From IMG/VR virus record IMGVR_UViG_2579778899_000010, positions 1 through 10,866 of that record: a DNA stretch of 10,866 bases; one strand, given 5' to 3'. Shown one piece after another: positions 1 to 10,866 of this stretch (its first letter is position 1; each line of letters opens with the position of its first letter). Below the pieces are notes generated by a model. It was given only the letters and a program-made list of their open reading frames with translations, had not been told where the DNA came from and made no database searches. Position numbers and translations under genes: made by a program. This DNA is from a virus (Duplodnaviria > Heunggongvirae > Uroviricota > Caudoviricetes).

Positions 1-115
1 CACGTTCTAAGTTTTGGACGCCTGCTATAGAGATATCGACAGCCTCAGCAACTTCTCGCAACGTCAGCTTCATCTCTAAACGGCGTGCTTTCAGTCGTTC
101 GCCTCGTGTTTTCAT
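1..115 (-). CDS. Phage repressor-like HTH (XRE/cI family) regulator, N-terminal part only; gene continues beyond the window start
   Basis: Reverse complement of 115..1 reads ATG AAA ACA CGA GGC... = MKTRGERLKARRLEMKLTLREVAEAVDISIAGVQNLER, a typical XRE helix-turn-helix. It is divergent from the cro-like gene across operator repeats. A TATGAT hexamer lies 6 nt upstream of the ATG on the minus strand. The C-terminal domain is not visible. Confidence 0.75.
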   Translation of the reverse strand, partial: MKTRGERLKARRLEMKLTLREVAEAVDISIAGVQNLER

Positions 116-138
116 ACTGTAATCATAAATGATCTTCT

Positions 139-178
139 TATAGCTGGCTATAAAATTTATTTATTATAGCTGGCTTTA
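139..178. promoter_or_regulatory. Operator/divergent promoter region: two copies of TATAGCTGGCT(A/T)TA at 139-152 and 165-178 (imperfect 6-2-6 palindromes)
   Basis: Direct reading: TATAGC-TG-GCTATA at 139-152 and TATAGC-TG-GCTTTA at 165-178, centres 26 bp apart, between the divergently transcribed repressor-like and cro-like genes. The layout is that of lambdoid OR-type operators. Confidence 0.5.
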
Positions 179-206
179 ATTGTTGTTTATTGTTTATAAT
201 AACAAC

Positions 207-428
207 ATGAAACCAGAAGAACTTATTCGCCATTTTGGCAGTGTAGAAAAAGCAGCGGCAGGGGTAGGTGTAACACCCGGAGCTGTTTACCAATGGTTAA
301 CCGCTGGAGAGATTCCTTCATTGCGGCAAAGCGATATTGAAGTTCGTACTGCTTATAAGCTGAAGAGTGACTTTACAACTCGGCGGGTAAAGCAGTCGAT
401 TAAGGAGAGTCGTAAGCGTGGAGCTTGA
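207..428 (+). CDS. Cro-like small DNA-binding regulator (73 aa)
   Basis: ATG at 207 gives MKPEELIRHFGSVEKAAAGVGVTPGAVYQWLTAGEIPS..., with an HTH-like GSVEKAAAGVGVTPGAVYQW segment. It is first in the rightward operon, opposite the repressor. There is no SD; TATAAT at 195-200 sits 6 nt upstream of the ATG. The ORF track's 180 start is a TTG inside the operator. Confidence 0.65.
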   Translation: MKPEELIRHFGSVEKAAAGVGVTPGAVYQWLTAGEIPSLRQSDIEVRTAYKLKSDFTTRRVKQSIKESRKRGA

Positions 429-1128
429 GTATATACGCAGCTGCGTCTCTACGGCATTGGCTGATGTTCATTATCGCCAGCGTGGCATTCTGGAGGTCCA
501 GCTTGAGCAGATGCGTCTCGGTAGATCAGGACGGTTTAACAATAAACCAGTCCGGTCAATCAGTGTGGGGGATGATAACTCATACGAAGTGTCCGTTCCT
601 GCTGAGCCGGTTAGATTCCACCAGGGGAAAACATTTAAACAATCATCAATGTTGCTCACTGATATTGATTTTCAGAGCGCCAGCTGGCGCAGGGCTATTG
701 GTCAGTTGAATAACGAGGAATCAGCCTGGCTTTATTATTGCTACGGATGCAAGCCTGATTACAACAATGATGTGATTGTTTGTCAGTGGTTATGGCTTGA
801 TTTTCTGGTTGCTCATTCGGGGGGCGGCTTTAAAAAAATGAAGGCCTCCACGAAAAAAGCCATGCGGAAATTGATTTATTACGCGGCACAACAGGTTAAA
901 TCAGAACTTACGTGTGCTGAGGCAGTTGATGAGAGAGAACAGGACAGGCATCTGAGTTTTCTACTGAATATATCTATTGATAGCTGGAGACAAGATTATA
1001 AAGAACGCTGGCTTTTAATTAAGTCGCGATGTCTGAGCTTAAATCGAACTGCATTATTAAATGCGGCGGAGAAGCGCAGTGAAATCATCAAACGCCATCG
1101 GGCAGGAAGTGCCATTCTGTCTTTGTAA
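418..1128 (+). CDS. Hypothetical early-operon protein (236 aa); function not recognised (position is that of a cII-like or replication-type gene)
   Basis: GTG at 418 is preceded by the strong SD AAGGAGAG (401-408) and overlaps the cro-like stop. It is a long uninterrupted ORF in the operon frame. I cannot assign a family from the sequence alone. Confidence 0.6.
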   Translation: MELEYIRSCVSTALADVHYRQRGILEVQLEQMRLGRSGRFNNKPVRSISVGDDNSYEVSVPAEPVRFHQGKTFKQSSMLLTDIDFQSASWRRAIGQLNNEESAWLYYCYGCKPDYNNDVIVCQWLWLDFLVAHSGGGFKKMKASTKKAMRKLIYYAAQQVKSELTCAEAVDEREQDRHLSFLLNISIDSWRQDYKERWLLIKSRCLSLNRTALLNAAEKRSEIIKRHRAGSAILSL

Positions 1129-1135
1129 ACAAGTT

Positions 1136-1381
1136 ATGTTCAGGAAACCGTCGAAGCCAGAATTAAGGTATTCGGGGGTAAGAAATGAATATGTTATCTG
1201 GTGTCCAACTTGTGGTTACAGGACACGACCAGATAGTAATAAGCAGTCTGTAATTGCCGATTGGTATTTATCAAATCAGCCAGGTAATAAGCATATAGAA
1301 AATCTTTGGATTAAGCGTTACTTGGAAATCAGAGAGGGTGCGACCGTGGTCGCACAAGAAAATGAAAATAACGCCATTTAA
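1136..1381 (+). CDS. Small Cys-containing protein, putative zinc ribbon; start uncertain (1061 or 1136)
   Basis: The ORF contains WCPTCGY, and upstream FCLC if started at 1061. There is no clear SD. Its C-terminal codons (GATVVAQ) read straight through palindrome copy 1. Confidence 0.4.
   Translation: MFRKPSKPELRYSGVRNEYVIWCPTCGYRTRPDSNKQSVIADWYLSNQPGNKHIENLWIKRYLEIREGATVVAQENENNAI
1338..1355. repeat. Palindrome copy 1: GTGCGACC-GT-GGTCGCAC
   Basis: Read directly; 8-bp inverted arms around a central GT. Lies at the 1136/1362 gene junction, 6 nt before ATG 1362. Confidence 0.9.
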
Positions 1382-1565
1382 GCAGGGGCCGATGACGCAT
1401 GATGAAGCAGAGCGTCTTTCAGATACTTATCGGCGGCGTGGTAAGAAAGTTCTGGTTGTTCGTTCTGATTTTTTAGGTGATGGATATTGCGTTTATGTTC
1501 ATTTACCTGAATCAGAAAGAACGCCAAAACCATCCAGAACATATCAACAGAAAATTTGGGTATAG
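1362..1565 (+). CDS. Hypothetical small protein (67 aa); start uncertain (1362 or 1392)
   Basis: ATG at 1362 lies 6 nt after palindrome copy 1 and gives MKITPFKQGPMTHDEAERLSDTYRRRGKKVLVVRSDFLGDGYCVYVHLPESE.... The track's longer 1338 start is a GTG inside the palindrome. Confidence 0.4.
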   Translation: MKITPFKQGPMTHDEAERLSDTYRRRGKKVLVVRSDFLGDGYCVYVHLPESERTPKPSRTYQQKIWV

Positions 1566-1588
1566 ATAAACGTTGAGGAGAATTATTC

Positions 1589-2188
1589 GTGACTAATCAG
1601 ATTATTTACGACAGGAAACGGTCTGATGTAATGATTGACCTTGAAACAATGGGTACTAACACATGTGCTCCAATTGTTTCTATCGGGGCAGTGTTTTTTT
1701 CTCCAGAAAGTGAGGAATTAGGTCCTACTTTTTATGTGCCAGTGAATCTCAGAAGCTCGATGTTGAATGGTGGTATCGCCGATGGTGATACCATTTTATG
1801 GTGGTTGAAACAGAGCAAGGAAGCCAGAGCCGCTATTTGTACTAATGATGCCCTTGATATTAAGGATGCACTTTTTGAATTATCACACTTTATTACTTGC
1901 CATGCATGTAATTTAAAAAAATTGAAAGTATGGGGAAATGGAGCAACGTTCGATAATGTAATTTTACGCGGTGCTTATGAGCGCGTTGGCTTAGCCTGTC
2001 CGTGGGAATATTTTAATGATCAGGATGTTCGAACAATCGTTAATCTTGGTCAGTTTATTGGTTTTAATCCTAAAAAAGATATGCTATTTGATGGCGAACG
2101 ACACAATGCCCTGGCTGATGCTATTCATCAGGCTAAATATGTATCCGCAATTTTCTCCCGTCTTGTAAAAGGGCAAGGAGAATCGTAA
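1589..2188 (+). CDS. DEDDh-type 3'-5' exonuclease (DnaQ-like fold, phage Rv2179c-like family)
   Basis: GTG at 1589 with SD GAGGAG upstream. Motifs: D-x-E in MIDLETMG, a second Asp in GATFDNVIL, and H-x4-D in ERHNALADAIH. The size (199 aa) is typical. Confidence 0.8.
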   Translation: MTNQIIYDRKRSDVMIDLETMGTNTCAPIVSIGAVFFSPESEELGPTFYVPVNLRSSMLNGGIADGDTILWWLKQSKEARAAICTNDALDIKDALFELSHFITCHACNLKKLKVWGNGATFDNVILRGAYERVGLACPWEYFNDQDVRTIVNLGQFIGFNPKKDMLFDGERHNALADAIHQAKYVSAIFSRLVKGQGES

Positions 2189-2607
2189 TGGCAAAGGCTT
2201 TTACACCAGAACAGAGGGAAGAACTGAATAAACAAATTGTGGAACTCGTGCGCCTGAATGGACGAGGAACGGTTAGGCAACTTGCGGATGAAACTGGTAT
2301 TAGCCGGTGTGCTGTTAGTCGTTTATCAAGAGAGCTTGCTGCCAGTGGTGATTTGTATATCTCTGGCTCCGGGATATTTCTGTCTGCACAAGCACGCAAG
2401 GACTGGCAAAACGCCCGTAAAAAACTATCAAGAGTAAAGCCGAAGAAATCGGTAGTGGTTGATCCAGACCTTATCTGGTCATTACCTGACGGAGAAATAC
2501 GTCGTTACGACAGGCGCTTGAACATGATTTGTCACGATTGTCGGAAGAGCGAAGTTATGCAGCGTGTGTTGGCGTTTTATCAGGGAAATTTTCAGGAGGT
2601 GGCGTAG
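2188..2607 (+). CDS. Hypothetical protein with probable winged-helix/HTH segment (139 aa)
   Basis: SD AAGGAGA before ATG 2188, with TAATG overlap with the exonuclease stop. Candidate HTH in GTVRQLADETGISRCAVSRLSRELAASG. Confidence 0.65.
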   Translation: MAKAFTPEQREELNKQIVELVRLNGRGTVRQLADETGISRCAVSRLSRELAASGDLYISGSGIFLSAQARKDWQNARKKLSRVKPKKSVVVDPDLIWSLPDGEIRRYDRRLNMICHDCRKSEVMQRVLAFYQGNFQEVA

Positions 2608-2897
2608 TGAATATCGACACCACGATAACGATCGATACGGCCCTAAATACCGGTCTGGCACTTCTCGGTTGGTTTTACATCATGTTCAGTGCGGGGAAGT
2701 GGGCGGCCTCTGTTTTTCTAAAGCAGTGGGGAAAGCGCCGCAAACAGGAAAAACGCCAGAAAGCGTTGGAGGCGTTCTATGACGCATTTGAACTTAGCCG
2801 CATTGAGCCAGGCACAACAGCCAAGATAGCGACAAAAGGCGACCTGATGATAGTGATGTTCCGACAGGAGAGAGCAGAGAAAGGTGAATCAGCATGA
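2607..2897 (+). CDS. Small membrane protein (96 aa), one hydrophobic helix
   Basis: GTG at 2607 with SD AGGAGG at 2595-2600. Hydrophobic segment LALLGWFYIMFSAGKWAASVF is followed by a basic stretch KQWGKRRKQEKRQK. The track's 2529 start has no SD. Confidence 0.5.
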   Translation: MNIDTTITIDTALNTGLALLGWFYIMFSAGKWAASVFLKQWGKRRKQEKRQKALEAFYDAFELSRIEPGTTAKIATKGDLMIVMFRQERAEKGESA

Positions 2898-3643
2898 AAT
2901 TTTCTAAATTTTCTGAGTTGGTGAATCGTATTTTGTTGAATCGTATTTTGTCCAACAACCACAGCCATCGTCGCGATATGGATGTAACAATCGTTGTTCA
3001 TTCGCCTGGCAGCATTGGTTCAACACCTTCAGTTGAGGTTCAGTCAATTCACGCTGGTTTTGATTGGGATTCCGGGAAAGTGCTTATTTTCCCATCACAG
3101 CCACTGACCACGCTAACACCAGAACAGATTACTGATATCACTGATAGTGTGCGCAAAGGTCAGTCCTGGCACGCATATCAGGAATATAAAAATCATAAAG
3201 AGCAGTTGGAAAAATTGTCGATTGAGTTGGAATCAGCCAAAAATCACATAGCAGAACTGGAAGCCAAACCTGTAAGCCAAACTTACAAGTTAACTTTTGA
3301 GCAATGGCTGGAACAGCAGCATGACAAAATTGATGTTGATTGTGGATGTGTAAGTACTGAAATGCTTATGCACTGGATAAGGGTCGCGTATGAGGCTGGC
3401 AACTATCCGGTAACTCCGGATGGTTGGATAAGCTGTAGTGATCGAATGCCTGAAAAGGGCCAGAACGTGCTTATTTCGGTGAATTTCGATAGCTCTCTGG
3501 TTGAACCGCTAATATGCTCCGCACGCTATACCGGAAGCACCTTTCGGAGCGGAGATGCAACGATTAAGCCGGGTAATGGTATTGAGCAAGCAACTCACTG
3601 GATGCCACTACCAGAACCGCCGCAGGAGTCGAAGAGTGAATAA
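2894..3643 (+). CDS. DUF551-like phage protein (249 aa)
   Basis: ATG at 2894 after AAAGGTGA. The C-terminal portion GWISCSDRMPEKGQNVLIS...HWMPLPEPP matches what I recall of DUF551. An in-frame 15-bp tandem duplication lies near the 5' end. Confidence 0.65.
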   Translation: MKFSKFSELVNRILLNRILSNNHSHRRDMDVTIVVHSPGSIGSTPSVEVQSIHAGFDWDSGKVLIFPSQPLTTLTPEQITDITDSVRKGQSWHAYQEYKNHKEQLEKLSIELESAKNHIAELEAKPVSQTYKLTFEQWLEQQHDKIDVDCGCVSTEMLMHWIRVAYEAGNYPVTPDGWISCSDRMPEKGQNVLISVNFDSSLVEPLICSARYTGSTFRSGDATIKPGNGIEQATHWMPLPEPPQESKSE

Positions 3644-3857
3644 AGCAGAGTTATTTCAGAAAATATCGGCTCTCGCGACTGAATGCCACGCTATAGCATC
3701 TGAGCTTGATGTTGGTGATGAACGAACCGAGATGTTCGAAATATACAGTGTGCTGCGCAATCTCTGTCGGCGTGGCTACGCCACTCAAGTAGGGCGAATG
3801 ACTAACCCACTACTCTCATCCTGTGATGAGGATGACTCAGATGAGGATGACGAATGA
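3636..3857 (+). CDS. Small acidic protein (73 aa)
   Basis: GTG at 3636 with GGAG upstream, overlapping the preceding stop. The product ends in the acidic tail DEDDSDEDDE. The track's longer 3555 start overlaps the previous gene. Confidence 0.45.
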   Translation: MNKAELFQKISALATECHAIASELDVGDERTEMFEIYSVLRNLCRRGYATQVGRMTNPLLSSCDEDDSDEDDE

Positions 3858-4384
3858 TGCATAAATCAGTAGCCGGTGAGTTTCAGAAGGAAGTCGATAA
3901 TACTACCGTTCTATTGGACGATATTTTAAGCATTCTCGCGCTGCTTGAGGCTGGCGATTGGTCAGAACATTGCACTAAAACAGAGCTAGGCGGTCGGCTT
4001 GAAAGAGAGATTACACGACTTATTGGTGATGCGCAGGAAGCCACTGTCACTGGCTATGAGTTAATCGCTGAAGCTTGGCGTTTGATGGATGGACAAGACC
4101 CTAAAACCAGCGATTGGCATAGCAAGGCTTCGAAGTATTTAAATTCCAATATTGTAGAAAAAGTTGATGATGACCGTATTGAGGCCGTTAAGGCTGTGTT
4201 GCGTAGACTGGCTGGCAACTCTCCGGTAACTCCGGATGGTCATATTCAGTTTTCTGTTTCACTTCCTGCAGCGTTTGGTGGAGATAAATATTTTATTGAT
4301 GGTGTATTTCAACCTTTGAGATATGAGCGTGACTGTGAAAGGGCGGTTGTGGCCGCTGGCGGTGTAGTTAATTGGGTTAAGTAA
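3854..4384 (+). CDS. Hypothetical protein (176 aa)
   Basis: ATGA overlap with the upstream gene. It shares the peptide AGN(S/Y)PVTPDG with the DUF551-like protein, encoded by a 29/30-nt identical DNA segment. Confidence 0.65.
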   Translation: MMHKSVAGEFQKEVDNTTVLLDDILSILALLEAGDWSEHCTKTELGGRLEREITRLIGDAQEATVTGYELIAEAWRLMDGQDPKTSDWHSKASKYLNSNIVEKVDDDRIEAVKAVLRRLAGNSPVTPDGHIQFSVSLPAAFGGDKYFIDGVFQPLRYERDCERAVVAAGGVVNWVK

Positions 4385-4399
4385 TTTTCAGGAGGATTT

Positions 4400-4726
4400 A
4401 TGGCGCTGACACCGGCAGAACGGCAAAGGAGACGCAGGGAACGGTTGAAGAAGGAAGGCACATCAAGACGGGACTGGATTCTAGAACCTGACGAGTTACG
4501 TATGTTGGGGGAAATTTGTGTATTGCGTAGACCAGGGCGAGTTCCATATTCGGAGAACGAAGTCATTGGTTTGCTGATCAGGAAAAACTATAAGGAGCTG
4601 CAGAAGCAGCTATCTACTACTTGCCCGCGATGTGGTCAAAAAATGCCTGTTTCAGAATGCATTTTTGATGGCGAAGGGTCATGCCACCTTACAACCACGA
4701 GGCTGAAACTTGCGCTCAAAGCGTGA
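4400..4726 (+). CDS. Arginine-rich-motif protein with C-terminal Cys cluster (108 aa); candidate RNA-binding protein
   Basis: Strong SD CAGGAGG before ATG 4400. N-terminus MALTPAERQRRRRERLKKEG is an ARM-like basic stretch. C-terminus carries CPRCG...C...C. Confidence 0.7.
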   Translation: MALTPAERQRRRRERLKKEGTSRRDWILEPDELRMLGEICVLRRPGRVPYSENEVIGLLIRKNYKELQKQLSTTCPRCGQKMPVSECIFDGEGSCHLTTTRLKLALKA

Positions 4727-4744
4727 CTGGTCACGGAGGGATAA

Positions 4745-4987
4745 ATGGATAAAAAGGCATTGCTTTTTGAAATGATACGAAAACGGAGCGAAAAGAGCTT
4801 TTCTGATGGTGGTGATGGTTTTGTTTTCGCTTCGATGCTTTCTTTTGATGTTGGGTTAAATAGCAGAATTGTTAAAAGGATGCTTGATTCTGCTGTCCGT
4901 ACTGGACTTCTTGAGAAAGTTGATCGTGGCATAGGGAGAGAGCATAAGTATCGGGTCACACAGCAGTTTACGCAGTTAATTCATTGA
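4745..4987 (+). CDS. Hypothetical small protein, possible winged helix (80 aa)
   Basis: SD GGAGGG before ATG 4745. Last gene of the rightward early operon before the AT-rich SOS promoter region. Confidence 0.6.
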   Translation: MDKKALLFEMIRKRSEKSFSDGGDGFVFASMLSFDVGLNSRIVKRMLDSAVRTGLLEKVDRGIGREHKYRVTQQFTQLIH

Positions 4988-5008
4988 AAATTGACCGTAA
5001 AGTTTGAG

Positions 5009-5036
5009 TTTTACCCTGTAATTTTATACAGTATAA
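5009..5036 (+). promoter_or_regulatory. SOS-type promoter: -35 TTTACC (5009-5014), LexA box CTGTAATTTTATACAG (5015-5030), -10 TATAAA (5031-5036)
   Basis: CTGT-N8-ACAG with an AT-rich spacer is the E. coli LexA operator pattern. It exactly fills the 16-bp spacer between the -35-like and -10-like hexamers, 40 bp upstream of ATG 5070. Confidence 0.6.
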
Positions 5037-5069
5037 ATAACCTTTTTTAGTTAAATGGTATGAGATTTA

Positions 5070-5273
5070 ATGTCTGAAGCAGCCGTATCAACTCTTGAAC
5101 AACTCGATTCAAATTTAAGAGATATTGACGCCGTTCTGGATCTGGTTAGCGTCACCCTGGCTTCTCCAGAAGCCAGCCTACATATTGGTGAGGTTTCACG
5201 ACTCATCAACATGTCGCGAGAGATTGCCCAGCATTGTCAGCAAACTATCGCTGTTGAGCGTTCACATCATTGA
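5070..5273 (+). CDS. Small protein (67 aa) under putative LexA control; candidate SOS-induced antirepressor or induction factor
   Basis: ATG at 5070 downstream of the LexA-box promoter gives MSEAAVSTLEQLDSNLRDIDAVLDLVSVTLASPEASLHIGEVSRLINMSREIAQHCQQTIAVERSHH. SD is weak. Function is inferred from context only. Confidence 0.55.
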   Translation: MSEAAVSTLEQLDSNLRDIDAVLDLVSVTLASPEASLHIGEVSRLINMSREIAQHCQQTIAVERSHH

Positions 5274-5315
5274 TGCACACCCCGCCCTTCTGGACGGGGT
5301 AGTAAAAGAGTCTAA

Positions 5316-5603
5316 TTAATAAACAGCGCGAATATCGATGGTTGCGCCGCAGGCATGAGCATATTTAGCCAAAGTTTTCATACTTGCCCCTAAAGGATTG
5401 CTTTCCAGGCGGCTGATGGCTGACGGTCGCAACCCCATTCGTTCAGCCAGAGCTGATTTCGTTAAACCTGCTCTTTCCCTCATTTCGTATAACATTTCGA
5501 CCATCTCCAGCTCTTTGTCGGCCTCTTCATATCCTTTGACGGCTTCTGGAGTGTTGAGGAGTTTTTCTTTTACTTCGTTAAACGGGATGCCTTTCGCTTT
5601 CAT
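5316..5603 (-). CDS. HTH (XRE-family) antitoxin of a HigA-like type II TA pair (95 aa)
   Basis: Minus-strand ATG at 5603-5601 with SD AAGGAGA 7 nt upstream, overlapping the toxin stop by 1 nt. HTH segment LTKSALAERMGLRPSAISRLESN. Confidence 0.8.
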   Translation of the reverse strand: MKAKGIPFNEVKEKLLNTPEAVKGYEEADKELEMVEMLYEMRERAGLTKSALAERMGLRPSAISRLESNPLGASMKTLAKYAHACGATIDIRAVY

Positions 5604-5914
5604 CAGTTCATCTCCTTCAGGCGAGTTCTGGCGATTTCGATAGCCTTCACCGGTGTTTTCTGTGTCTTTTTTACAAATGCATGCAATAGATAAATTTCGT
5701 TACCAGTCGCGTAGGCGTACAGCGTTCTTGCGATGTTTTTATCCCCTACTCGTAGTTCAAAAAGCCCTCCACCTATTACACGGCTATGGGGCATCTTCAG
5801 TTTGTTGCCTTCCTTCTCCAGTCGCTCAATTAATCTGGTCATGCGACCTCGCAAATCATCTGGTAGTTCAAGCAGTTCATCCAGTGCTGCAGGGTGGGTT
5901 ATCACGTTAAACAT
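5603..5914 (-). CDS. RelE/ParE-superfamily toxin, HigB/Gp49-like (103 aa)
   Basis: Minus-strand ATG at 5914-5912 with GGAGG 7 nt upstream. Product MFNVITHPAALDELLELPDDLRGRMTRLIERL...GGLFELRVGDKNIARTLYAYATGNEIYLLHAFVKKTQKTP matches the RelE-fold Gp49/HigB pattern. Toxin-first order with a coupled HTH antitoxin. Confidence 0.8.
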   Translation of the reverse strand: MFNVITHPAALDELLELPDDLRGRMTRLIERLEKEGNKLKMPHSRVIGGGLFELRVGDKNIARTLYAYATGNEIYLLHAFVKKTQKTPVKAIEIARTRLKEMN

Positions 5915-6079
5915 ATTATAGCCTCCATAGCCATAAAATACACCAAAACAAGAAAAAAGCGCAAATTAAAAATTTCACTAAAAAGTTAAAAATAACACTG
6001 GATGTGTTCGTTTGGCAGAGTTACAGTTCGTGTCATTGAGGGGCAATAACCCACTAACTATATGAATTTGGAGGATATT

Positions 6080-6301
6080 ATGAATTATCAAGGTAACGAA
6101 AAAATGCGCGACGACGTTGCGGAGATAGCTAACGAACTGTATGAGTTGTGGCAGAAGGTTGAACGTTTCGAAAAGGAATATGGTTTCAACAGTACCAACC
6201 TGGCAGAACGACTGGCTGGTCGCTTAGTTGGGACTATGGGGCCAAAACTGGCTGAGTTGAACCGCTTTATGGCTGATGTTGATTTCCAGTTTCAAGATTG
6301 A
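6080..6301 (+). CDS. Hypothetical small protein (73 aa)
   Basis: Strong SD GGAGG (6069-6073) 6 nt before ATG 6080. The track's longer 6062 start has no SD. Confidence 0.55.
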   Translation: MNYQGNEKMRDDVAEIANELYELWQKVERFEKEYGFNSTNLAERLAGRLVGTMGPKLAELNRFMADVDFQFQD

Positions 6302-6314
6302 TTAGAGAGGCGTT

Positions 6315-6542
6315 ATGAATATTAATGAAATTCGTGGAAATATGACTGAAGCGGCCCTGAGTGTGGAATGTGTTATGCGTGGATACCCACGCATTTCCCT
6401 GAAAGAGTTAAGCGAAGCCTGTTTTTTGAGTCAAGCTGCCGTTGAATTTATCATCGAACAGATGATCTGTTTTGGGGTTGCAAAGCGTAGCGGGTCTGGT
6501 CGATATTCTTTGACCGATGAATATAAGCAGGCAACTTTCTAA
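6315..6542 (+). CDS. Hypothetical small protein with possible winged-helix DNA-binding fold (75 aa)
   Basis: SD GAGAGG before ATG 6315. Segment RISLKELSEACFLSQAAVEFIIEQMICFGVAKRSGSGRYSLT is wHTH-like. The stop lies 5 nt before palindrome copy 2. Confidence 0.5.
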   Translation: MNINEIRGNMTEAALSVECVMRGYPRISLKELSEACFLSQAAVEFIIEQMICFGVAKRSGSGRYSLTDEYKQATF

Positions 6543-6547
6543 AAACT

Positions 6548-6565
6548 GTGCGACCACGGTCGCAC
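6548..6565. repeat. Palindrome copy 2: GTGCGACC-AC-GGTCGCAC (central dinucleotide inverted relative to the other three; flanking T/A extend it to 20 bp, 6547-6566)
   Basis: Read directly. Immediately after the stop of the 6315..6542 gene and about 85 bp upstream of the intrinsic terminator. Confidence 0.9.
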
Positions 6566-6650
6566 AGCACAAAAACGAAAAAGCTTGGCAAAATTACGGT
6601 TTTTAGTTATTGTTTTGTTAAGTTGGGTTTTTTGTACCCAACATCCAACA

Positions 6651-6676
6651 AGCCGCCTTTATGGCGGTTTTTTTGT
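6651..6676 (+). terminator. Rho-independent terminator (hairpin AGCCGCC / GGCGGTT with 5-nt loop, then a T7 run)
   Basis: Sequence AGCCGCCTTTATGGCGGTTTTTTTGT: GC-rich stem plus a run of seven T, located between the small-gene pair and the methyltransferase. Confidence 0.6.
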
Positions 6677-6764
6677 GCCTGAAAAGTGGGCGCAGGACAA
6701 GTTGCAGCTTGTCCTGCGGTCAACCCATGCCAGAGCTATAGGCTGAACCTAAAGCCCACCCGCG

Positions 6765-7886
6765 ATGCGCATCGCCGGGTTAGCTTACCCAGGCAAAAAA
6801 ATAATAGCTATGTTCAAAACCACTAATATTCATGGCGCGCAACTCGTTTGCGCAGATTCTCTGCAATTTATCAAAACCATCCCTGATAACTCGGTCAATT
6901 TGATTGCAACAGACCCACCATACTTCGGCGTAAAGGCTAACGCATGGGATAACCAGTGGGATAGCGATGCTGACTTTTTGGGGTGGATTGATGAATTTTT
7001 GGCAGAATTTTGGCGGATATTGGCCCCTAATGGCAGCCTGTATATGTTTACCGGCTCTCGCCTTGCGTCAAAAATTGAATTATTAACTCGCGACCGTTTC
7101 AATGTTCTGAACCATATCATTTGGGCTAAACCCAGTGGTATGTGGCGCGGTTGTCATAAAGAAAGTTTAAGGGCTTATTTTCCTGCCACTGAAAGAATAT
7201 TATTTGCAGAGCATTACGGCGCGTCAGGTTATGCTAAAGGTCAGTCAGGTTATGCTTCAAAATGTGCAGATTTAAGAAAAAATATTTTTTCTCCACTAAT
7301 TGATGCTTTTTCGCTGGCTCGCCGTCAGTTAGATATATCAGCCGCAGACATTAATTCAGCAACAGGAAAGCAGATGTGTTCGCACTGGTTTTCTTATTCG
7401 CAGTGGCGGCTTCCATCATTAAGTGATTTTAATAAACTATGCGAATTATTTCGCAGGAAGGCAGATTCACTCGGTGTCCCGTGTCCATATCCTTTTAATG
7501 TTGATTATTCAGAACATGAAAAGCGTTATAGCGATCTGAAATTGCGTTATGAGGAAGTAAAGAAGCAGTATGATGATTTGAAGGCTCAGTATGAAAATTT
7601 GCGCCGCCCATTTCATGTTACTGCTGATGTACCTTATACCGATGTATGGGAGTTTCCTCCTGTGCAATATTATCCTGGCAAGCACCCATGTGAAAAACCT
7701 GCAGCGATGATGGAACATATTATAAAAAGTAGTTCCCGCCCCGGAGATATCGTTGCCGATTTCTTTATGGGATCAGGCTCTACTATTAAAGCCGCGCTGA
7801 AGTTAGGTCGTCAGGCAATCGGTATTGAGATTGAGGGTGAACGTTATCTTCAGACAGTTGATGAAGTGAAAAAGTTATTTGAGTAA
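6765..7886 (+). CDS. Orphan DNA methyltransferase, beta-class N6-adenine/N4-cytosine type (373 aa as drawn; alternative start ATG 6810)
   Basis: Motif IV DPPY in LIATDPPYFG near the N-terminus and motif I FFMGSGST near the C-terminus; this order is the beta-class permutation. A heptad-like insert YSEHEKRYSDLKLRYEEVKKQYDDLKAQYENL lies between them. Neither candidate start has an SD. No restriction endonuclease gene is adjacent. Confidence 0.85.
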   Translation: MRIAGLAYPGKKIIAMFKTTNIHGAQLVCADSLQFIKTIPDNSVNLIATDPPYFGVKANAWDNQWDSDADFLGWIDEFLAEFWRILAPNGSLYMFTGSRLASKIELLTRDRFNVLNHIIWAKPSGMWRGCHKESLRAYFPATERILFAEHYGASGYAKGQSGYASKCADLRKNIFSPLIDAFSLARRQLDISAADINSATGKQMCSHWFSYSQWRLPSLSDFNKLCELFRRKADSLGVPCPYPFNVDYSEHEKRYSDLKLRYEEVKKQYDDLKAQYENLRRPFHVTADVPYTDVWEFPPVQYYPGKHPCEKPAAMMEHIIKSSSRPGDIVADFFMGSGSTIKAALKLGRQAIGIEIEGERYLQTVDEVKKLFE

Positions 7887-7981
7887 CTGAAGAATATATT
7901 CCCCTGCCGTTTTTGATGGGGTTATTTCTCGCCGTATAGTTTCCAAGCCGAAACCTCAGCAACTATTGCGAGGTAAGAGAT

Positions 7982-8254
7982 ATGAAGATGGATGAACGAT
8001 ACAGCAGCGCATCTTATGGTAGTGCTGGTCTTACTGCGTTCTTTGCCAGCCTGTCATTGCAGGATTGGGGCTTCATTATCGGTGTCGCGTTCAGCATTAT
8101 CCTCGGTGTACTTACATACCGGCTCAATAAACGCGAGCAGATGAAGCGCACGAAGATATTGCAGGACATATTGGATAAAACTGATGCCAATAATATTTCC
8201 GCCACGGCGATGGTTATTGGTGAATTGGGAAAGAGAGCACCGAAGGAAATATGA
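7982..8254 (+). CDS. Holin, pinholin-like with two TMDs (90 aa), possible dual-start motif MKM
   Basis: ATG at 7982 and again at 7988. Two hydrophobic segments, [13 protein letters not shown] and [18 protein letters not shown], then a charged tail. Sits immediately upstream of, and overlapping, a SAR endolysin gene. Confidence 0.65.
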
Positions 8255-8817
8255 TGCAGTCATCATTACGCAAAGCTGTCGCAACTGCTATTGGTGGCGG
8301 GGCTATTGCCATAGCATCTGTGCTCATCTCTGGTCCGAGCGGCAACGATGGTCTGGAAGGTGTGAGACATAACCCCTACAAAGACATCGTTGGTGTATGG
8401 ACTGTATGTTACGGGCATACAGGAAAAGACATTATGCTCGGTAAAACGTATACCGAAGCAGAATGCAAAGCTCTCCTGAATAAAGACCTTGCTACTGTCG
8501 CCAGACAAATTAACCCGTACATCAAAGTCGATATACCGGAAACAACGCGTGGTGCTCTTTACTCGTTCGTTTACAACGTGGGTGCAGGCAATTTCAGAAC
8601 ATCGACACTTCTTCGCAAAATCAACCAGGGCGATATCAAAGGTGCATGTGATCAACTACGTCGCTGGACATATGCTGGCGGCAAGCAATGGAAAGGGCTG
8701 ATGACTCGCCGTGAGATTGAGCGTGAAGTCTGTTTGTGGGGCAGCAATGAGCAGAGTAACCGCAATTATCTCCGCACTGGTTATCTGCATCATCGTCTGC
8801 CTGTCGTGGGCTGTTAA
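8251..8817 (+). CDS. SAR-type endolysin (T4-lysozyme-like muramidase, GH24), with an apparently extended C-terminus (188 aa)
   Basis: N-terminal signal-anchor-release segment [26 protein letters not shown]. Catalytic region [25 protein letters not shown] carries the Glu/Asp/Thr arrangement. SD GAAGGAAAT precedes ATG 8251. The last 24 aa are the Rz leader read in another frame. Confidence 0.85.
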
Positions 8818-9208
8818 TCATTACCGTGATAACGCCATCGCCTACAAGGAGCAGCGCGACAAAAACGCCAGAGAGCTGAAGCTGGCGAACGCCACTATCA
8901 AAGACTTGCAGATCCGCCAGCGTGATGCAGCGGCGCTGGATGCCAAATACACGAAGGACTTAGCTGATGCCAAAAAGCAGCTTGATGATTTGCAGCGTTG
9001 TGTTCGCACTGGCAAGTGTGGGCTGCACCTCAACGCCAGATGTTCCGCGAACGGAGCGACCAGCACCGGCGGCCTGGGCGATGTTACCGGCCCCCGACTT
9101 ACTGACTCCGCTGAACGGGATTATTTCACCCTCAGAGAGCGAATCGTCACAGTGACGAAACAGGTTGGATATTTGCAGGAGTACATCAGGACGCAATGCC
9201 TGAATTAA
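8747..9208 (+). CDS. Rz: Rz i-spanin (153 aa)
   Basis: [49 protein letters not shown]... closely matches phage lambda Rz as I recall it: N-terminal TMD then a coiled-coil periplasmic domain, C-terminus ...YIRTQCLN. Confidence 0.85.
8967..9155 (+). CDS. Rz1: Rz1 o-spanin lipoprotein, nested within Rz in the +1 frame (62 aa)
   Basis: SD AAGGA 8 nt before ATG 8967. Signal peptide with lipobox-like ...ALASVGC, then a proline-rich mature part ending ...[11 protein letters not shown], as in lambda Rz1. Confidence 0.75.
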
Positions 9209-9249
9209 TCCATCTGCATCAAAAACGAACTCAATTTGTTGGATAGTGA

Positions 9250-9561
9250 ATGAAAATTTATATTTCCGGGCCAATGACGGGATATGAGAACTCTAATCGT
9301 GACGCCTTTAATAAAGAGGCAGATCGTTTGTCACGACATGGTCACTCTGTCTTGAATCCAGCCACTTTGCCTAATGGTCTGACACAACGTGAATACATGG
9401 ATATTTGCTTTGCAATGCTTCGTTGTGCTGATGCTATTTTGATGCTTCCTGGCTGGAAAGCGTCTGCTGGAGCAACTGCTGAGTATCATTACGCATACAA
9501 GATGGAGATGCCGGTATTCACTACGCTGAATTACCCGCCAGCTTGTTCCTCTGTAGCATAA
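9250..9561 (+). CDS. Small protein with nucleoside 2-deoxyribosyltransferase-like N-terminus (DUF4406-like), 103 aa
   Basis: MKIYISGPMTGYENSNRDAFNKEADRL... resembles the N-terminal signature of NDT-like/DUF4406 proteins. The family assignment is from memory and unverified. First gene after Rz. Confidence 0.55.
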   Translation: MKIYISGPMTGYENSNRDAFNKEADRLSRHGHSVLNPATLPNGLTQREYMDICFAMLRCADAILMLPGWKASAGATAEYHYAYKMEMPVFTTLNYPPACSSVA

Positions 9562-9580
9562 AAATCTCTTTGTTTCTCGT

Positions 9581-9598
9581 GTGCGACCGTGGTCGCAC
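9581..9598. repeat. Palindrome copy 3: GTGCGACC-GT-GGTCGCAC
   Basis: Read directly. 19 nt after the stop of the 9250..9561 gene, preceded by the boxA-like string TCTCTTTG (9564-9571). Confidence 0.9.
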
Positions 9599-9800
9599 AT
9601 TAAATACCGCGCTGCATCGTCGCCGTATTTCCGCATTAACCATGACCGTAGCCCGACGGGGAACTCCTCTGCGCGAGTGTGCGGAAATAATCAAAAACGA
9701 TGCACACCGGGTTTTTACCGCGCTAATGATTCGCGGGTTTGTCCCTCATGCTCGCCAGTCCTGTGCGAGGGTGGAAGAAACAGGGCATGTATTCAGGAGC

Positions 9801-9818
9801 GTGCGACCGTGGTCGCAC
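9801..9818. repeat. Palindrome copy 4: GTGCGACC-GT-GGTCGCAC
   Basis: Read directly. Exactly 220 bp from copy 3 (start to start), 23 nt upstream of ATG 9842. Confidence 0.9.
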
Positions 9819-9841
9819 GGTATCTTTGTCAGGAGGTTTTG

Positions 9842-10702
9842 ATGAAAGAGTTGCAAAAAATTAATTCAATAATGGAAAGATTAAGTGCTCTTGAGCGTAA
9901 GCTGGACGATTGTGGAAAGCTGTGTGTTGAAAAGCAAAATGAGCTTTACCGGGAATTTTTTACAATCGTAAGTGAGCTGATGCCAATTGTTAATAACTGC
10001 CTGATGACATCCAGATTTTTTAATGTCGATGCTACTACATCCAGAAAATTTTCTGTGAAAATTCAAGAAAGAGTTTCTGGTAGTGTGACAAGAGAGATGG
10101 CTGAACAGTTGGTGGCAATGAGCAATAAAACAAAAAGAAAAAAGGCATTGCTTGTAACAGCAAATCAGCTTTCAGGGCGCGTTGACTTTCAGGTCAGACA
10201 GGGTGGGCGTGTACTGGTAAATGATGCGTTCGTTGGACGTAGCTTTAGTCCTTACTCGATAAAATATGATGTTGATGCAGATGATCAGGATATCAGCATT
10301 TCCTGGAAATCTGAGACAGCAGGAATTGTATTAACAGCAGAGTTGTTGAGTGATGATAAAAATGATGTCCAGCATCATTTGGACGAAAAGAATCATATTT
10401 CTGAAATTTGTATGAAGCCACGCAGCGGAATGACTTTATTGTCACGCACTCTTGCTGCTGGCTTTTCTGCACCGGAAAAACGTGTGCTTCTGGTAGTGCC
10501 TGAAGATGCAGATATTCGACCACTGAATGGCTGTGATGTTATTAGTGCAAAAACATTGCATACCCGCGTCATTCCTGTACCGGATGTGGTCATTATTGAT
10601 GATGTTGAGAAATGCAAGTCTGTTTCCTCAACTGCCACAATCAAGCGAATTTTACGTTGTAGCACGTCGGCTGTTGTATTCCGGAAGCAGTTACATAACT
10701 AA
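9842..10702 (+). CDS. Hypothetical protein, 286 aa, AT-rich moron gene of unknown function
   Basis: Strong SD AGGAGG (9831-9836) before ATG 9842. Long clean ORF with no hydrophobic helices noticed and no recognisable motifs. The track's 9581 start is a GTG inside palindrome copy 3. Confidence 0.7.
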   Translation: MKELQKINSIMERLSALERKLDDCGKLCVEKQNELYREFFTIVSELMPIVNNCLMTSRFFNVDATTSRKFSVKIQERVSGSVTREMAEQLVAMSNKTKRKKALLVTANQLSGRVDFQVRQGGRVLVNDAFVGRSFSPYSIKYDVDADDQDISISWKSETAGIVLTAELLSDDKNDVQHHLDEKNHISEICMKPRSGMTLLSRTLAAGFSAPEKRVLLVVPEDADIRPLNGCDVISAKTLHTRVIPVPDVVIIDDVEKCKSVSSTATIKRILRCSTSAVVFRKQLHN

Positions 10703-10825
10703 CCAGTTTTGTTTTGCAGAACATCCTCAACTAAAAGCTTATAGAAAGAGAGCCTGAGATATTTTTTCTGTCTCTCGTAGTTGTTTATTTTTCTCGAACA
10801 GGCTTACAACTTACAGGATATAAAC

Positions 10826-10866
10826 ATGCAAGAAGAAGCAAATAAAATTCTTGTTGATTTATTGAA
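10826..10866 (+). CDS. 5' end of an unknown gene (MQEEANKILVDLL...), truncated by the window end
   Basis: ATG at 10826 preceded by ACAGGATA. Only 13 codons are visible. Confidence 0.3.
   Translation, partial: MQEEANKILVDLL

Follow-up and report, generated by a model that had tools for sequence, protein, structure and literature searches.

In the lambdoid phages (lambda, 21, and 82), the late genes are placed behind a Q–pR'–tR' cassette. Its Q protein belongs to a recognised family, its promoter is of the sigma70 type, a -10-like element occurs in the stretch transcribed first, and an intrinsic terminator stands about 30–55 nt downstream, with the late and lysis genes next. The published definition of the cassette comprises pR', a sigma-dependent pause element, and a terminator. 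The Q82 family (PF06323) is one of three Q families (PMC9388147), and in the phages N15, phiKO2, and PY54 the gene forms a single cro-q operon (PMC10612081). In the N15 gene 51–52 interval (AF064539) and in the phiKO2 gene 52 region (AY374448), the elements follow one another in the same order, i.e., gp51, a partition palindrome, the -35/-10 hexamers, a terminator, a methylase gene, a terminator, and the holin. A relative of this methylase, M.EcoGII, is a prophage-borne enzyme that methylates adenines in any context, is unexpressed in its native lysogen, and slows growth if made constitutively (PMC5778455); in its modelled architecture, the Rossmann domain is split, the recognition domain has four helices, and the linker is long, charged, and in part made of two helices. 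Here, we describe the corresponding locus in a DNA of 10,866 nt from a tailed phage (IMG/VR virus record IMGVR_UViG_2579778899_000010, positions 1 to 10,866; the whole stretch is called the window from here on), focusing on positions 6543–7886, for which a preliminary description, made from the sequence alone, was available. This segment is the late-operon control region, with the first late gene, of an N15-like linear plasmid-prophage, and its elements stand in the same order as in N15 and phiKO2. Such an arrangement is already understood; what is new is a conserved, unannotated RNA element at 6679–6778, lying between the terminator and the methylase gene, which is not annotated in the N15 and phiKO2 records either.

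The assignment to the N15-like phages relies on the following data. Positions 6300–8000 of the window share 99.9% identity with the Escherichia phages YDC107_1 (genus Ravinvirus, N15-like) and PhiR46_1, and, at the nucleotide level, 74% with N15 and 68% with phiKO2. PhiR46_1 has a linear genome of 46 kb, with telL and telR sites, a protelomerase-sized gene, and ParA/ParB annotated adjoining telR; furthermore, it harbors cI, cro, lambda-like head and tail genes, and a large primase that is, by position and size, the equivalent of N15 repA. The sequence is carried by 16 of the 5426 complete E. coli genomes, and every time it is plasmid-borne. Taken together, these data identify the window as the right arm of an N15-like linear plasmid-prophage. 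The phage represents a lineage apart from N15 and phiKO2, its Q and methylase being only 66–84% identical to theirs at the protein level.

The features involved in the late switch are the following:

180–428, plus strand: cro, lytic repressor and first gene of the early rightward operon (PF14549 P22_Cro, E = 2.5e-22; cro in YDC107_1).
418–1128, plus strand: Q antiterminator of the Q82 family (PF06323, E = 4e-84).
6585–6613, plus strand: late promoter pR', TTGGCA-17-TATTGT, with an A-tract before it (promoter scan, 9 of 12 positions).
6619–6627, plus strand: -10-like element TAAGTTGGG, followed by GGG, at about -1 to +8; candidate sigma70-dependent pause element.
6622–6642, plus strand: first hairpin of the short pR' transcript (GTTGGGT...ACCCAAC; minimum-free-energy fold).
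6650–6676, plus strand: intrinsic terminator tR' (scan; stem 6650–6670 and T-run to 6676).

The Q product also matches phrog_304 ("anti-termination protein Q-like", E = 2e-72) and shares 66% identity with the Q proteins of N15 and of phiKO2; a search for a solved structure retrieved no match for it. The start of its reading frame overlaps the end of cro (418 versus 428). The gene ends at 1128 and the promoter begins at 6585, so the two are not adjacent, and they are likewise separated in N15, phiKO2, and PY54; the late promoter, 5.4 kb downstream, is where Q would be expected to act. The cassette shares with the lambdoid one all the components mentioned above, i.e., the Q family, the promoter type, the -10-like element, the terminator, and the late and lysis genes that follow; unlike in the lambdoid phages, Q lies 5.4 kb upstream, in the cro operon, and a plasmid partition site abuts the promoter.

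The leader of the methylase gene was aligned first with those of N15, MStein-2023a, phiKO2, and Klebsiella relatives; a second comparison used 40 distinct IMG/VR sequences. Four conserved blocks resulted from the alignment: the palindrome, the promoter, the pause element, and the short transcript with its terminator. The aligned hexamers correspond to the -35/-10 signals of the N15 record and to the "putative late promoter" of the phiKO2 GenBank record; TTGGCA is invariant across the N15 and phiKO2 clades, the aligned consensus is TTGGCA-17-TAT(T/C)(G/T)T, and the spacer TTTTTAG(G/T)TAT is kept among phages whose Q proteins are about 66% identical. Five nt past the -10 hexamer, TA(A/T/C)GTTG(G/T)(G/C) is present in all 37 of the 37 distinct relatives, which represent three clades. 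By its form, which agrees with the sigma70-dependent pause elements defined for Q cassettes, TAAGTTGGG (6619–6627) is a candidate for the pause element where Q would load. It is similar to the lambda pause element, AACGATGGG, which stands at +1, and the position of the candidate is closer to that of lambda than to that of phage 82. In the first hairpin (6622–6642), the five outer pairs are kept in the relatives, with changes mostly to G-U on the plus strand; this hairpin and the terminator fold as predicted (z = -4.7). The tR' stem is invariant and its loop variable among the relatives, and the terminator is annotated in both N15 and phiKO2. The layout at 6585–6676 agrees with the published definition of a Q cassette, and the blocks together would constitute a pR'/pause/tR' cassette giving, without Q, a transcript of about 55 nt with two hairpins, comparable to lambdoid pR' RNAs such as StxS. 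Lambda 6S RNA, a short terminated pR' transcript, is a further parallel.

According to the preliminary description, the methylase occupied the position normally held by Q, and the way in which the late genes are switched on was unclear. Neither idea is sustained by these data: a Q82-family Q lies beside cro and the late switch is, therefore, not obscure, with Q (418–1128) and pR'/tR' present as in N15-like phages. Moreover, in the lambdoid phages cdtI and yong2 the methylase gene is located after Q, pR'/tR', and the gp51-like gene, and before the holin; the methylase is, therefore, a first late gene of common occurrence that does not replace Q. The same description had placed a promoter and, shortly after it, a terminator resembling a pR'–tR' arrangement, which the alignment with the annotated N15 and phiKO2 signals bears out; all the features that it listed, among them the hairpins, the terminator, and the promoter, were recovered at the positions it gave or within 1 nt of them, and the palindrome copy (6548–6565) is real as well. 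It had itself named, as evidence against its view, a conventional Q gene and a pR' elsewhere in the prophage; Q was indeed found (418–1128), whereas no separate pR' was, the promoter of the preliminary description itself being pR'.

A different switch might be imagined, in which a phage lacking the conventional Q–pR' system uses the gp51-like protein (6315–6542) or the 4400–4726 product for reading through the 6651–6676 terminator. The gp51-like genes (phrog_331) always accompany this methylase module and carry a weak winged-helix signal, the 4400–4726 product belongs to the "transcriptional regulator" family phrog_536, and Q is not adjacent to the promoter. Nevertheless, a full-length Q82-family Q is present at 418–1128, and promoter, pause element, and terminator have the layout of a standard Q cassette. 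In addition, the gp51-like gene of the lambdoid phages lies past the terminator and is, therefore, not required for its own read-through. We regard this scenario as scarcely credible, and no new antiterminator is needed.

Two observations concern the same leader. In one N15-like contig (L034, 6349 region), all that precedes the tR' loop has given way to unrelated sequence; the partition site, promoter, and pause element are lost, and the RNA element and methylase are kept; this looks like an insertion or a recombination breakpoint. The ORFs 6548–6682, 6585–6746, and 6686–6826 were considered as genes and discarded as spurious, no frame being conserved across the leader alignment; 6585–6746 is annotated in PhiR46_1 as a 53-aa "hypothetical protein" that spans promoter, terminator, and first hairpin, and is probably an over-call.

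The first gene behind the terminator is:

6810–7886, plus strand: orphan beta-class N6-adenine DNA methylase of the M.EcoGII family, 358 aa; first late gene.

The ORF as a whole spans 6765–7886. Its product matches PF01555 (N6_N4_Mtase, E = 1.3e-46), and the catalytic DPPY (6912–6923; residues 35–38) precedes the SAM-binding FxGxG (7764–7778; FFMGSG, residues 318–323), which is the beta order, with the recognition domain between the two motifs. The matches to solved structures (M.RsrI, DpnA, MboIIA, CcrM, and PvuII) are split into N- and C-terminal halves around residues 112–248. A BLASTP comparison with M.EcoGII, whose sequence was taken from the supplement of PMC11551740, revealed 56% identity over the full length (residues 1–357 versus 1–348, E = 1e-143), and the enzyme is 57–63% identical to those of phiKO2, PY54, cdtI, and Hafnia yong2. 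With M.EcoGII, which is encoded by a prophage of E. coli O104:H4, it shares the beta motif order, the succession of a Rossmann half, a central helical recognition domain, a charged two-helix linker, and a second Rossmann half, and the condition of orphan, prophage-borne gene; unlike M.EcoGII, it is nine residues longer in the linker region and resides on a linear plasmid-prophage, not on a chromosomal lambdoid prophage. The preliminary description was right in assigning the beta class, as well as in reporting no adjacent endonuclease (the neighbours are the 75-aa gp51-like gene and the holin) and a position directly upstream of the lysis genes (holin, endolysin, and Rz follow). The heptad-like insert that it pointed out is also present (residues ~235–265) and corresponds to the normal linker of the M.EcoGII family.

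The start codon ATG 6810 is common to all the relatives, which share the N-terminus M-x-(N/K)-T-(V/T)-(K/N)-(I/L). An alternative start at ATG 6765 was rejected: it is not conserved, indels occur in the region upstream of 6810, where no frame is kept, and all the homologues begin at the position corresponding to 6810. The palindrome 6762–6775, which had been said to overlap a candidate start codon, does exist, but the ATG concerned is not the conserved one. In the N15 record (L003, 2011–3099), gene 52 starts at an internal ATG (284 aa, without DPPY), and the full ORF of 362 codons, counted from the conserved ATG, is intact.

By analogy with M.EcoGII, the enzyme would most likely modify adenines in lytic growth with a weak preference for the surrounding sequence or none at all, and its position behind tR' suggests that it would be silent in the lysogen. 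It might, instead, be sequence-specific like Dam or CcrM and play a regulatory role in the phage or in the host. In line with this, 44% of the residues differ from M.EcoGII, including some in the target-recognition region, the records bear the annotation "DNA adenine methylase", and insertion mutants in the P840 homologue still lyse and lysogenise, the gene being dispensable in the laboratory (PMC10612081). The full-length homology with M.EcoGII, the same domain order and linker, and a position behind tR' that fits an enzyme needing to be off in lysogens argue in the opposite direction, and make sequence specificity improbable in our view.

The stretch between tR' and the methylase start harbors two further features:

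6679–6778, minus strand: conserved structured RNA element, candidate cis-antisense small RNA (covariance model R2, 36.8 bits, E = 1e-6).
6782–6787, minus strand: -10-like hexamer TAAGCT, candidate promoter of the antisense RNA.

On the minus strand, the element consists of a 5' hairpin (the palindrome 6762–6775, GCGATGCGCATCGC), a three-way junction that includes the 10-bp-stem hairpin 6692–6717, and a U-rich tail. Both hairpins are thus part of a single element of about 100 nt, and do not belong to one leader together with pR', as they had been first described. The element is conserved before this methylase family in N15-like and lambdoid phages; in the latter, the promoter and terminator are located further upstream of it, before the gp51-like gene. 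Overall, 557 related methylase loci were confirmed in IMG/VR, and the lambdoid leader with the gene start was found in 1110 of the 5426 complete E. coli genomes (~20%). In two distant relatives (L289, 2195–2298, and L297, 2205–2308), about 150–200 nt, which include a small Cys-rich ORF, separate the element from the methylase start; the element need not, therefore, adjoin the start codon.

The helices with variable sequence were missed by RNAalifold on plain MAFFT alignments, because their arms were out of register; hence, two covariance models were built by hand, R1 for the plus strand and R2 for the minus strand. Each of them gave one match per locus, directly upstream of the methylase start (R1 ends at the ATG). 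The sequence of the P2 stem differs among phages and the pairing is kept (GCAGGACAAG/CUUGUCCUGC in the window, GCUACAGCAUG/CAUGCUGUAGC in Kpn74, and GCUGGUGGGUG/CACCUGCCAGC in cdtI). In the minus-strand (R2) alignment, 95.2% of the cells are paired, compared to 72.1% in shuffles; there are 26 pairs changed on both sides versus 21.0, and 77 further pair types versus 63.5, with none of 500 shuffles as high, and slid controls reached at most 0.139 versus 0.613. The plus-strand (R1) alignment has 87% of its cells paired, compared to 67% in shuffles, with a covariation score of 0.46 versus 0.13. Part of the covariation in this last model did not hold: that of P1 stems for the most part from the N15-type rows being shifted by one column, and L315 alone has a true C-G to G-C flip.

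These data indicate that a structure is conserved, and raise the question of the strand on which it acts. In principle, the structure at 6679–6806 might act on the plus strand, as a cis-regulatory 5' untranslated region (UTR) of the methylase, i.e., a translational switch or a leader sensing a ligand or a protein. Its position in the 5' UTR and the lack of a Shine-Dalgarno sequence before the ATG are compatible with this idea, as is the fact that the plus-strand model covaries above both controls. Moreover, mutually exclusive pairings suggest two states, the first one pairing AAGG/AAAG with GCCU/GCUU (9 A-U, 27 G-C, and 9 G-U pairs, and no A-C) and the second one pairing AUGGGCG with CGCCCGU; G-U pairs occur on the plus strand in some P2 stems, and a second, unrelated leader before other members of the family (see below) suggests that leader regulation is general. 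On the other hand, the plus strand pairs 87% of the cells versus 95% for the minus strand, its "further pair types" are not significant (reached by 170 of 500 shuffles), its minimum-free-energy fold in the window is ill defined, with an ensemble frequency of 0.06, and does not agree with the consensus, and no riboswitch of Rfam matches it.

The mismatches point to the same strand as these statistics: in the plus-strand alignment there are 135 A-C against 41 G-U, and such an excess of A-C is what selection for a structure on the opposite strand leaves behind. The P3 pairing, 80% on the plus strand, reaches about 96% once the alignment is mirrored. For the consensus, the folding energy amounts to -43.5 kcal/mol on the minus strand (mirrored alignment) versus -28.9 on the plus strand, and, of the 46 sequences folded singly, 37 have the lower energy on the minus strand. 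Taken alone, the minus strands of the window, cdtI, and L294 fold into one architecture (z = -5.2, -3.7, and -3.3, respectively), with a U-rich tail after the closing stem in all three and a well-defined fold in two of them. The strand statistics favour the antisense over the sense interpretation, although both strands may fold; we consider the sense leader rather unlikely, and the conserved structure is probably best read as a minus-strand RNA running from about 6776 to 6681.

The same hairpins and palindromes (6692–6775) might be interpreted as double-stranded DNA operators for a dimeric regulator, e.g., the gp51-like winged-helix protein acting in the manner of a controller protein of restriction-modification systems. 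In fact, GCGATGCGCATCGC is a perfect palindrome, its equivalents are near-palindromes with a GCGC or GCAC centre, and the arms change between clades along with the sequence of the gp51-like protein. However, the P2 and P3 loops are long, non-palindromic, and variable in length; the bulges and the strand-biased G-U/A-C substitutions would be senseless in a duplex operator; and the junction of the three helices is closed by a further, fourth pairing that is conserved. With such loops and such a strand bias of the wobble pairs, a DNA operator is unlikely, and we assign very little probability to it.

As for the minus-strand RNA, its candidate promoter is the hexamer TA(A/G)GCT, located about 6 nt before the first hairpin; of the 32 leaders listed, 28 have it. 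In 23 leaders, of the lambdoid, phiKO2, and PY54 types, the TGn of an extended -10 stands before the hexamer, and in the five of the N15 type GGG or GGT does; a consensus promoter scan did not call TAAGCT at 6782–6787. We tentatively propose, as a possibility to which we give somewhat less than an even chance, that the element represents a family of RNAs of about 100 nt, antisense to the 5' UTRs of the M.EcoGII family, which would resemble type I antitoxins in silencing the transcription leaking past tR' in lysogens and would be overwhelmed by Q-driven transcription.

Antisense small RNAs are known in phages, lambda OOP and P22 sar being two of them. A further parallel is provided by the convergent small RNA pairs just downstream of pR' known in prophages of enterohemorrhagic E. 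coli (EHEC) (PMC4104026). The AsxR/AgvB pairs, located 3' of pR' in EHEC prophages, share with the element of the window the nature of a short structured RNA antisense to the late transcript, just past pR', and convergent with a short plus-strand transcript. Unlike them, the element is about 100 nt long with a three-way junction, instead of 51–60 nt with a single terminator hairpin, goes with the methylase 5' UTR instead of a moron insertion site, and is a candidate only; there is no sequence or Rfam relationship between the two. More generally, no family of Rfam 15 matched the element, in the window at E up to 1 and in ten related loci at the gathering score. The matches to AgrB and ctRNA_pGA1 in the window (E = 0.2 and 0.58) were discarded as chance matches of terminator-like hairpins. 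Over the cdtI-type version, RefSeq annotates the methylase only, and a literature search for a small RNA described beside this methylase retrieved nothing. The loose pattern ACCCATGCC-N16-28-GCCCA-N5-GAT gave, in genome contigs, hits that nhmmer showed to be due to chance, and no new true members in viral contigs.

On the whole, the explanation that combines an N15-type late switch, a partition site, a methylase of the M.EcoGII family, and a candidate antisense RNA is, in our opinion, quite probable, and the following scenario can be depicted. Once the prophage repressor is lifted, Q would be made from the early cro-Q operon. RNA polymerase would start at pR' near 6620 and pause at TAAGTTGGG. 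Without Q, it would stop at tR' (6650–6676), giving the two-hairpin transcript of about 55 nt; with Q loaded on the paused polymerase, as the protein family and the layout suggest, it would become terminator-resistant and read the methylase, holin, endolysin, and Rz. If it behaves as M.EcoGII does, the methylase would then broadly modify the replicating phage DNA, protecting the progeny from restriction. In the lysogen, a toxic methylase would have to stay silent, with tR' stopping the pR' transcripts; the minus-strand RNA, transcribed from a promoter of the extended -10 type, may pair with the 5' UTR of any leak-through transcript and thus act as a second lock, as its position, structure, and strand bias would suggest.

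Some points weigh against this explanation. Q lies 5.4 kb away from pR', unlike in the textbook cassette with an adjacent Q. Phage 82, the founder of the Q family, pauses near +25, versus about +1 for the element described here, so that the details may differ from those of the founder. Non-specific activity is known for M.EcoGII, not for the 56%-identical enzyme of the window. As for the RNA, the relatives fall into few clades, and for this reason some of the changes counted as covariation are inherited; the candidate ends, at its 3' side, in a branched structure with only 4 U, not a classical terminator; and some helices have G-U on the plus strand too (P2 in cdtI), so a sense leader may fold. 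Finally, the antisense promoter lacks a good -35 and, in the window, the TG of an extended -10 (GGGTAAGCT); it is, therefore, to be considered hypothetical.

The fourth component of the locus, i.e., the partition site, belongs to a set of dispersed palindromes:

1338–1355, no strand assigned: N15-type SopB-binding palindrome, equivalent to N15 IR2, 3' of Q (GTGCGACCGTGGTCGCAC).
6548–6565, no strand assigned: N15-type SopB-binding palindrome, equivalent to N15 IR3, 20 bp upstream of the -35.
9581–9598, no strand assigned: N15-type SopB-binding palindrome (arms match).
9801–9818, no strand assigned: N15-type SopB-binding palindrome (arms match).

The sequences of the SopB-binding centromere sites IR1–IR4 of N15 have been reported (PMC7205306, Table 4). 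The 18-bp repeat of the window, GTGCGACC-NN-GGTCGCAC, has 8-bp arms identical to those of IR1–4, only the central dinucleotide being variable, and the four copies compare with 0.03 expected by chance. The N15 copy at the equivalent place (L003:1748–1765) is the published IR3 oligonucleotide, flanks included, and the phiKO2 record labels the corresponding palindrome as a "putative plasmid partitioning site". Judging from these matches, the palindrome 20 bp before the promoter, which the preliminary description listed as the second copy of a palindrome without recognising it as a partition site, is one of the dispersed SopB (ParB) centromere sites. The positions of IR2 (3' of Q) and IR3 (before the late promoter) are shared with N15, which has four sites; the lineage of the window phage has at least five (five in the first 36 kb of PhiR46_1). 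The cognate ParA/ParB genes lie outside the window and are annotated in the 99.9%-identical PhiR46_1. In PY54-type phages (L008, which is PY54, 2440–2460, as well as L012 and L013), TTGGGACCATGGTCCCAA, which we take to be a SopB site of the F-plasmid type, is found where N15-type phages carry GTGCGACCNNGGTCGCAC. The location beside the promoter is, therefore, kept while the specificity changes, and this exchange of F-type and N15-type sites at one position speaks for a functional connection of the plasmid partition proteins with late transcription. As for the other copies, the fifth one of PhiR46_1 is within the primase/repA gene (L001:7931), and those at 9581–9598 and 9801–9818 are 220 bp apart, in the gap between a DUF4406 gene and the next ORF.

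The genes flanking the control region and the methylase are:

6315–6542, plus strand: gp51-like protein of 75 aa with a weak winged-helix signal (phrog_331, E = 3e-32; weak HTH_24).
7982–8254, plus strand: holin (sub-threshold Phage_holin_2_3 and 2_1; holin in PhiR46_1).
8251–8817, plus strand: endolysin (PF00959, E = 7.7e-48).
8711–9208, plus strand: Rz spanin (PF03245, E = 3e-38).

The gp51-like protein belongs to the same phrog_331 family as orf55 of cdtI and was aligned with the homologues of N15, phiKO2, PY54, cdtI, and yong2. At about 8737, near the 3' end of the endolysin gene, the window has a 1-nt deletion compared to PhiR46_1, and the ORF therefore runs to 8817 (188 aa versus 165 aa in PhiR46_1). 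The strong divergence of the Rz region past ~8848 points to a mosaic junction. A pair formed by a Gp49-like gene (PF05973, HigB-type) and an HTH_3 gene, located at 5316–5914 on the minus strand, runs opposite to the surrounding genes and is probably a toxin–antitoxin module (N15 genes 48 and 49).

A second conserved leader, unrelated to the element described above, was found about 150 nt before the methylase start (2501) in thirteen of the relatives (L280, L282, L284, L286, L290, L292, L307, L308, L310, L311, L314, L317, and L323). It consists of GCCTTGAGTACCTGAGACCCA...TGGAGAGGAAGCA, a GC-rich hairpin with a T-rich stretch, TATTCAAGGCTCT, and a strong AAGGAG ribosome-binding site; its outer GCCTTGA/TCAAGGC segments can pair. 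No Rfam match was retrieved in three of its loci.

Most of the locus is, in conclusion, ordinary, since it corresponds to the N15-like arrangement, with Q by cro, pR'–tR' far downstream, and a partition site abutting the promoter. The interest of the RNA element lies in the enzyme behind it: M.EcoGII, which is in wide use for mapping chromatin and RNA, is toxic if expressed, and its silence in lysogens is unexplained. If the element were a true antisense regulator, it would provide a testable mechanism for the silence of M.EcoGII in its native strain, and would represent a new and widespread prophage small RNA, whose leader is present in about a fifth of the complete E. coli genomes.

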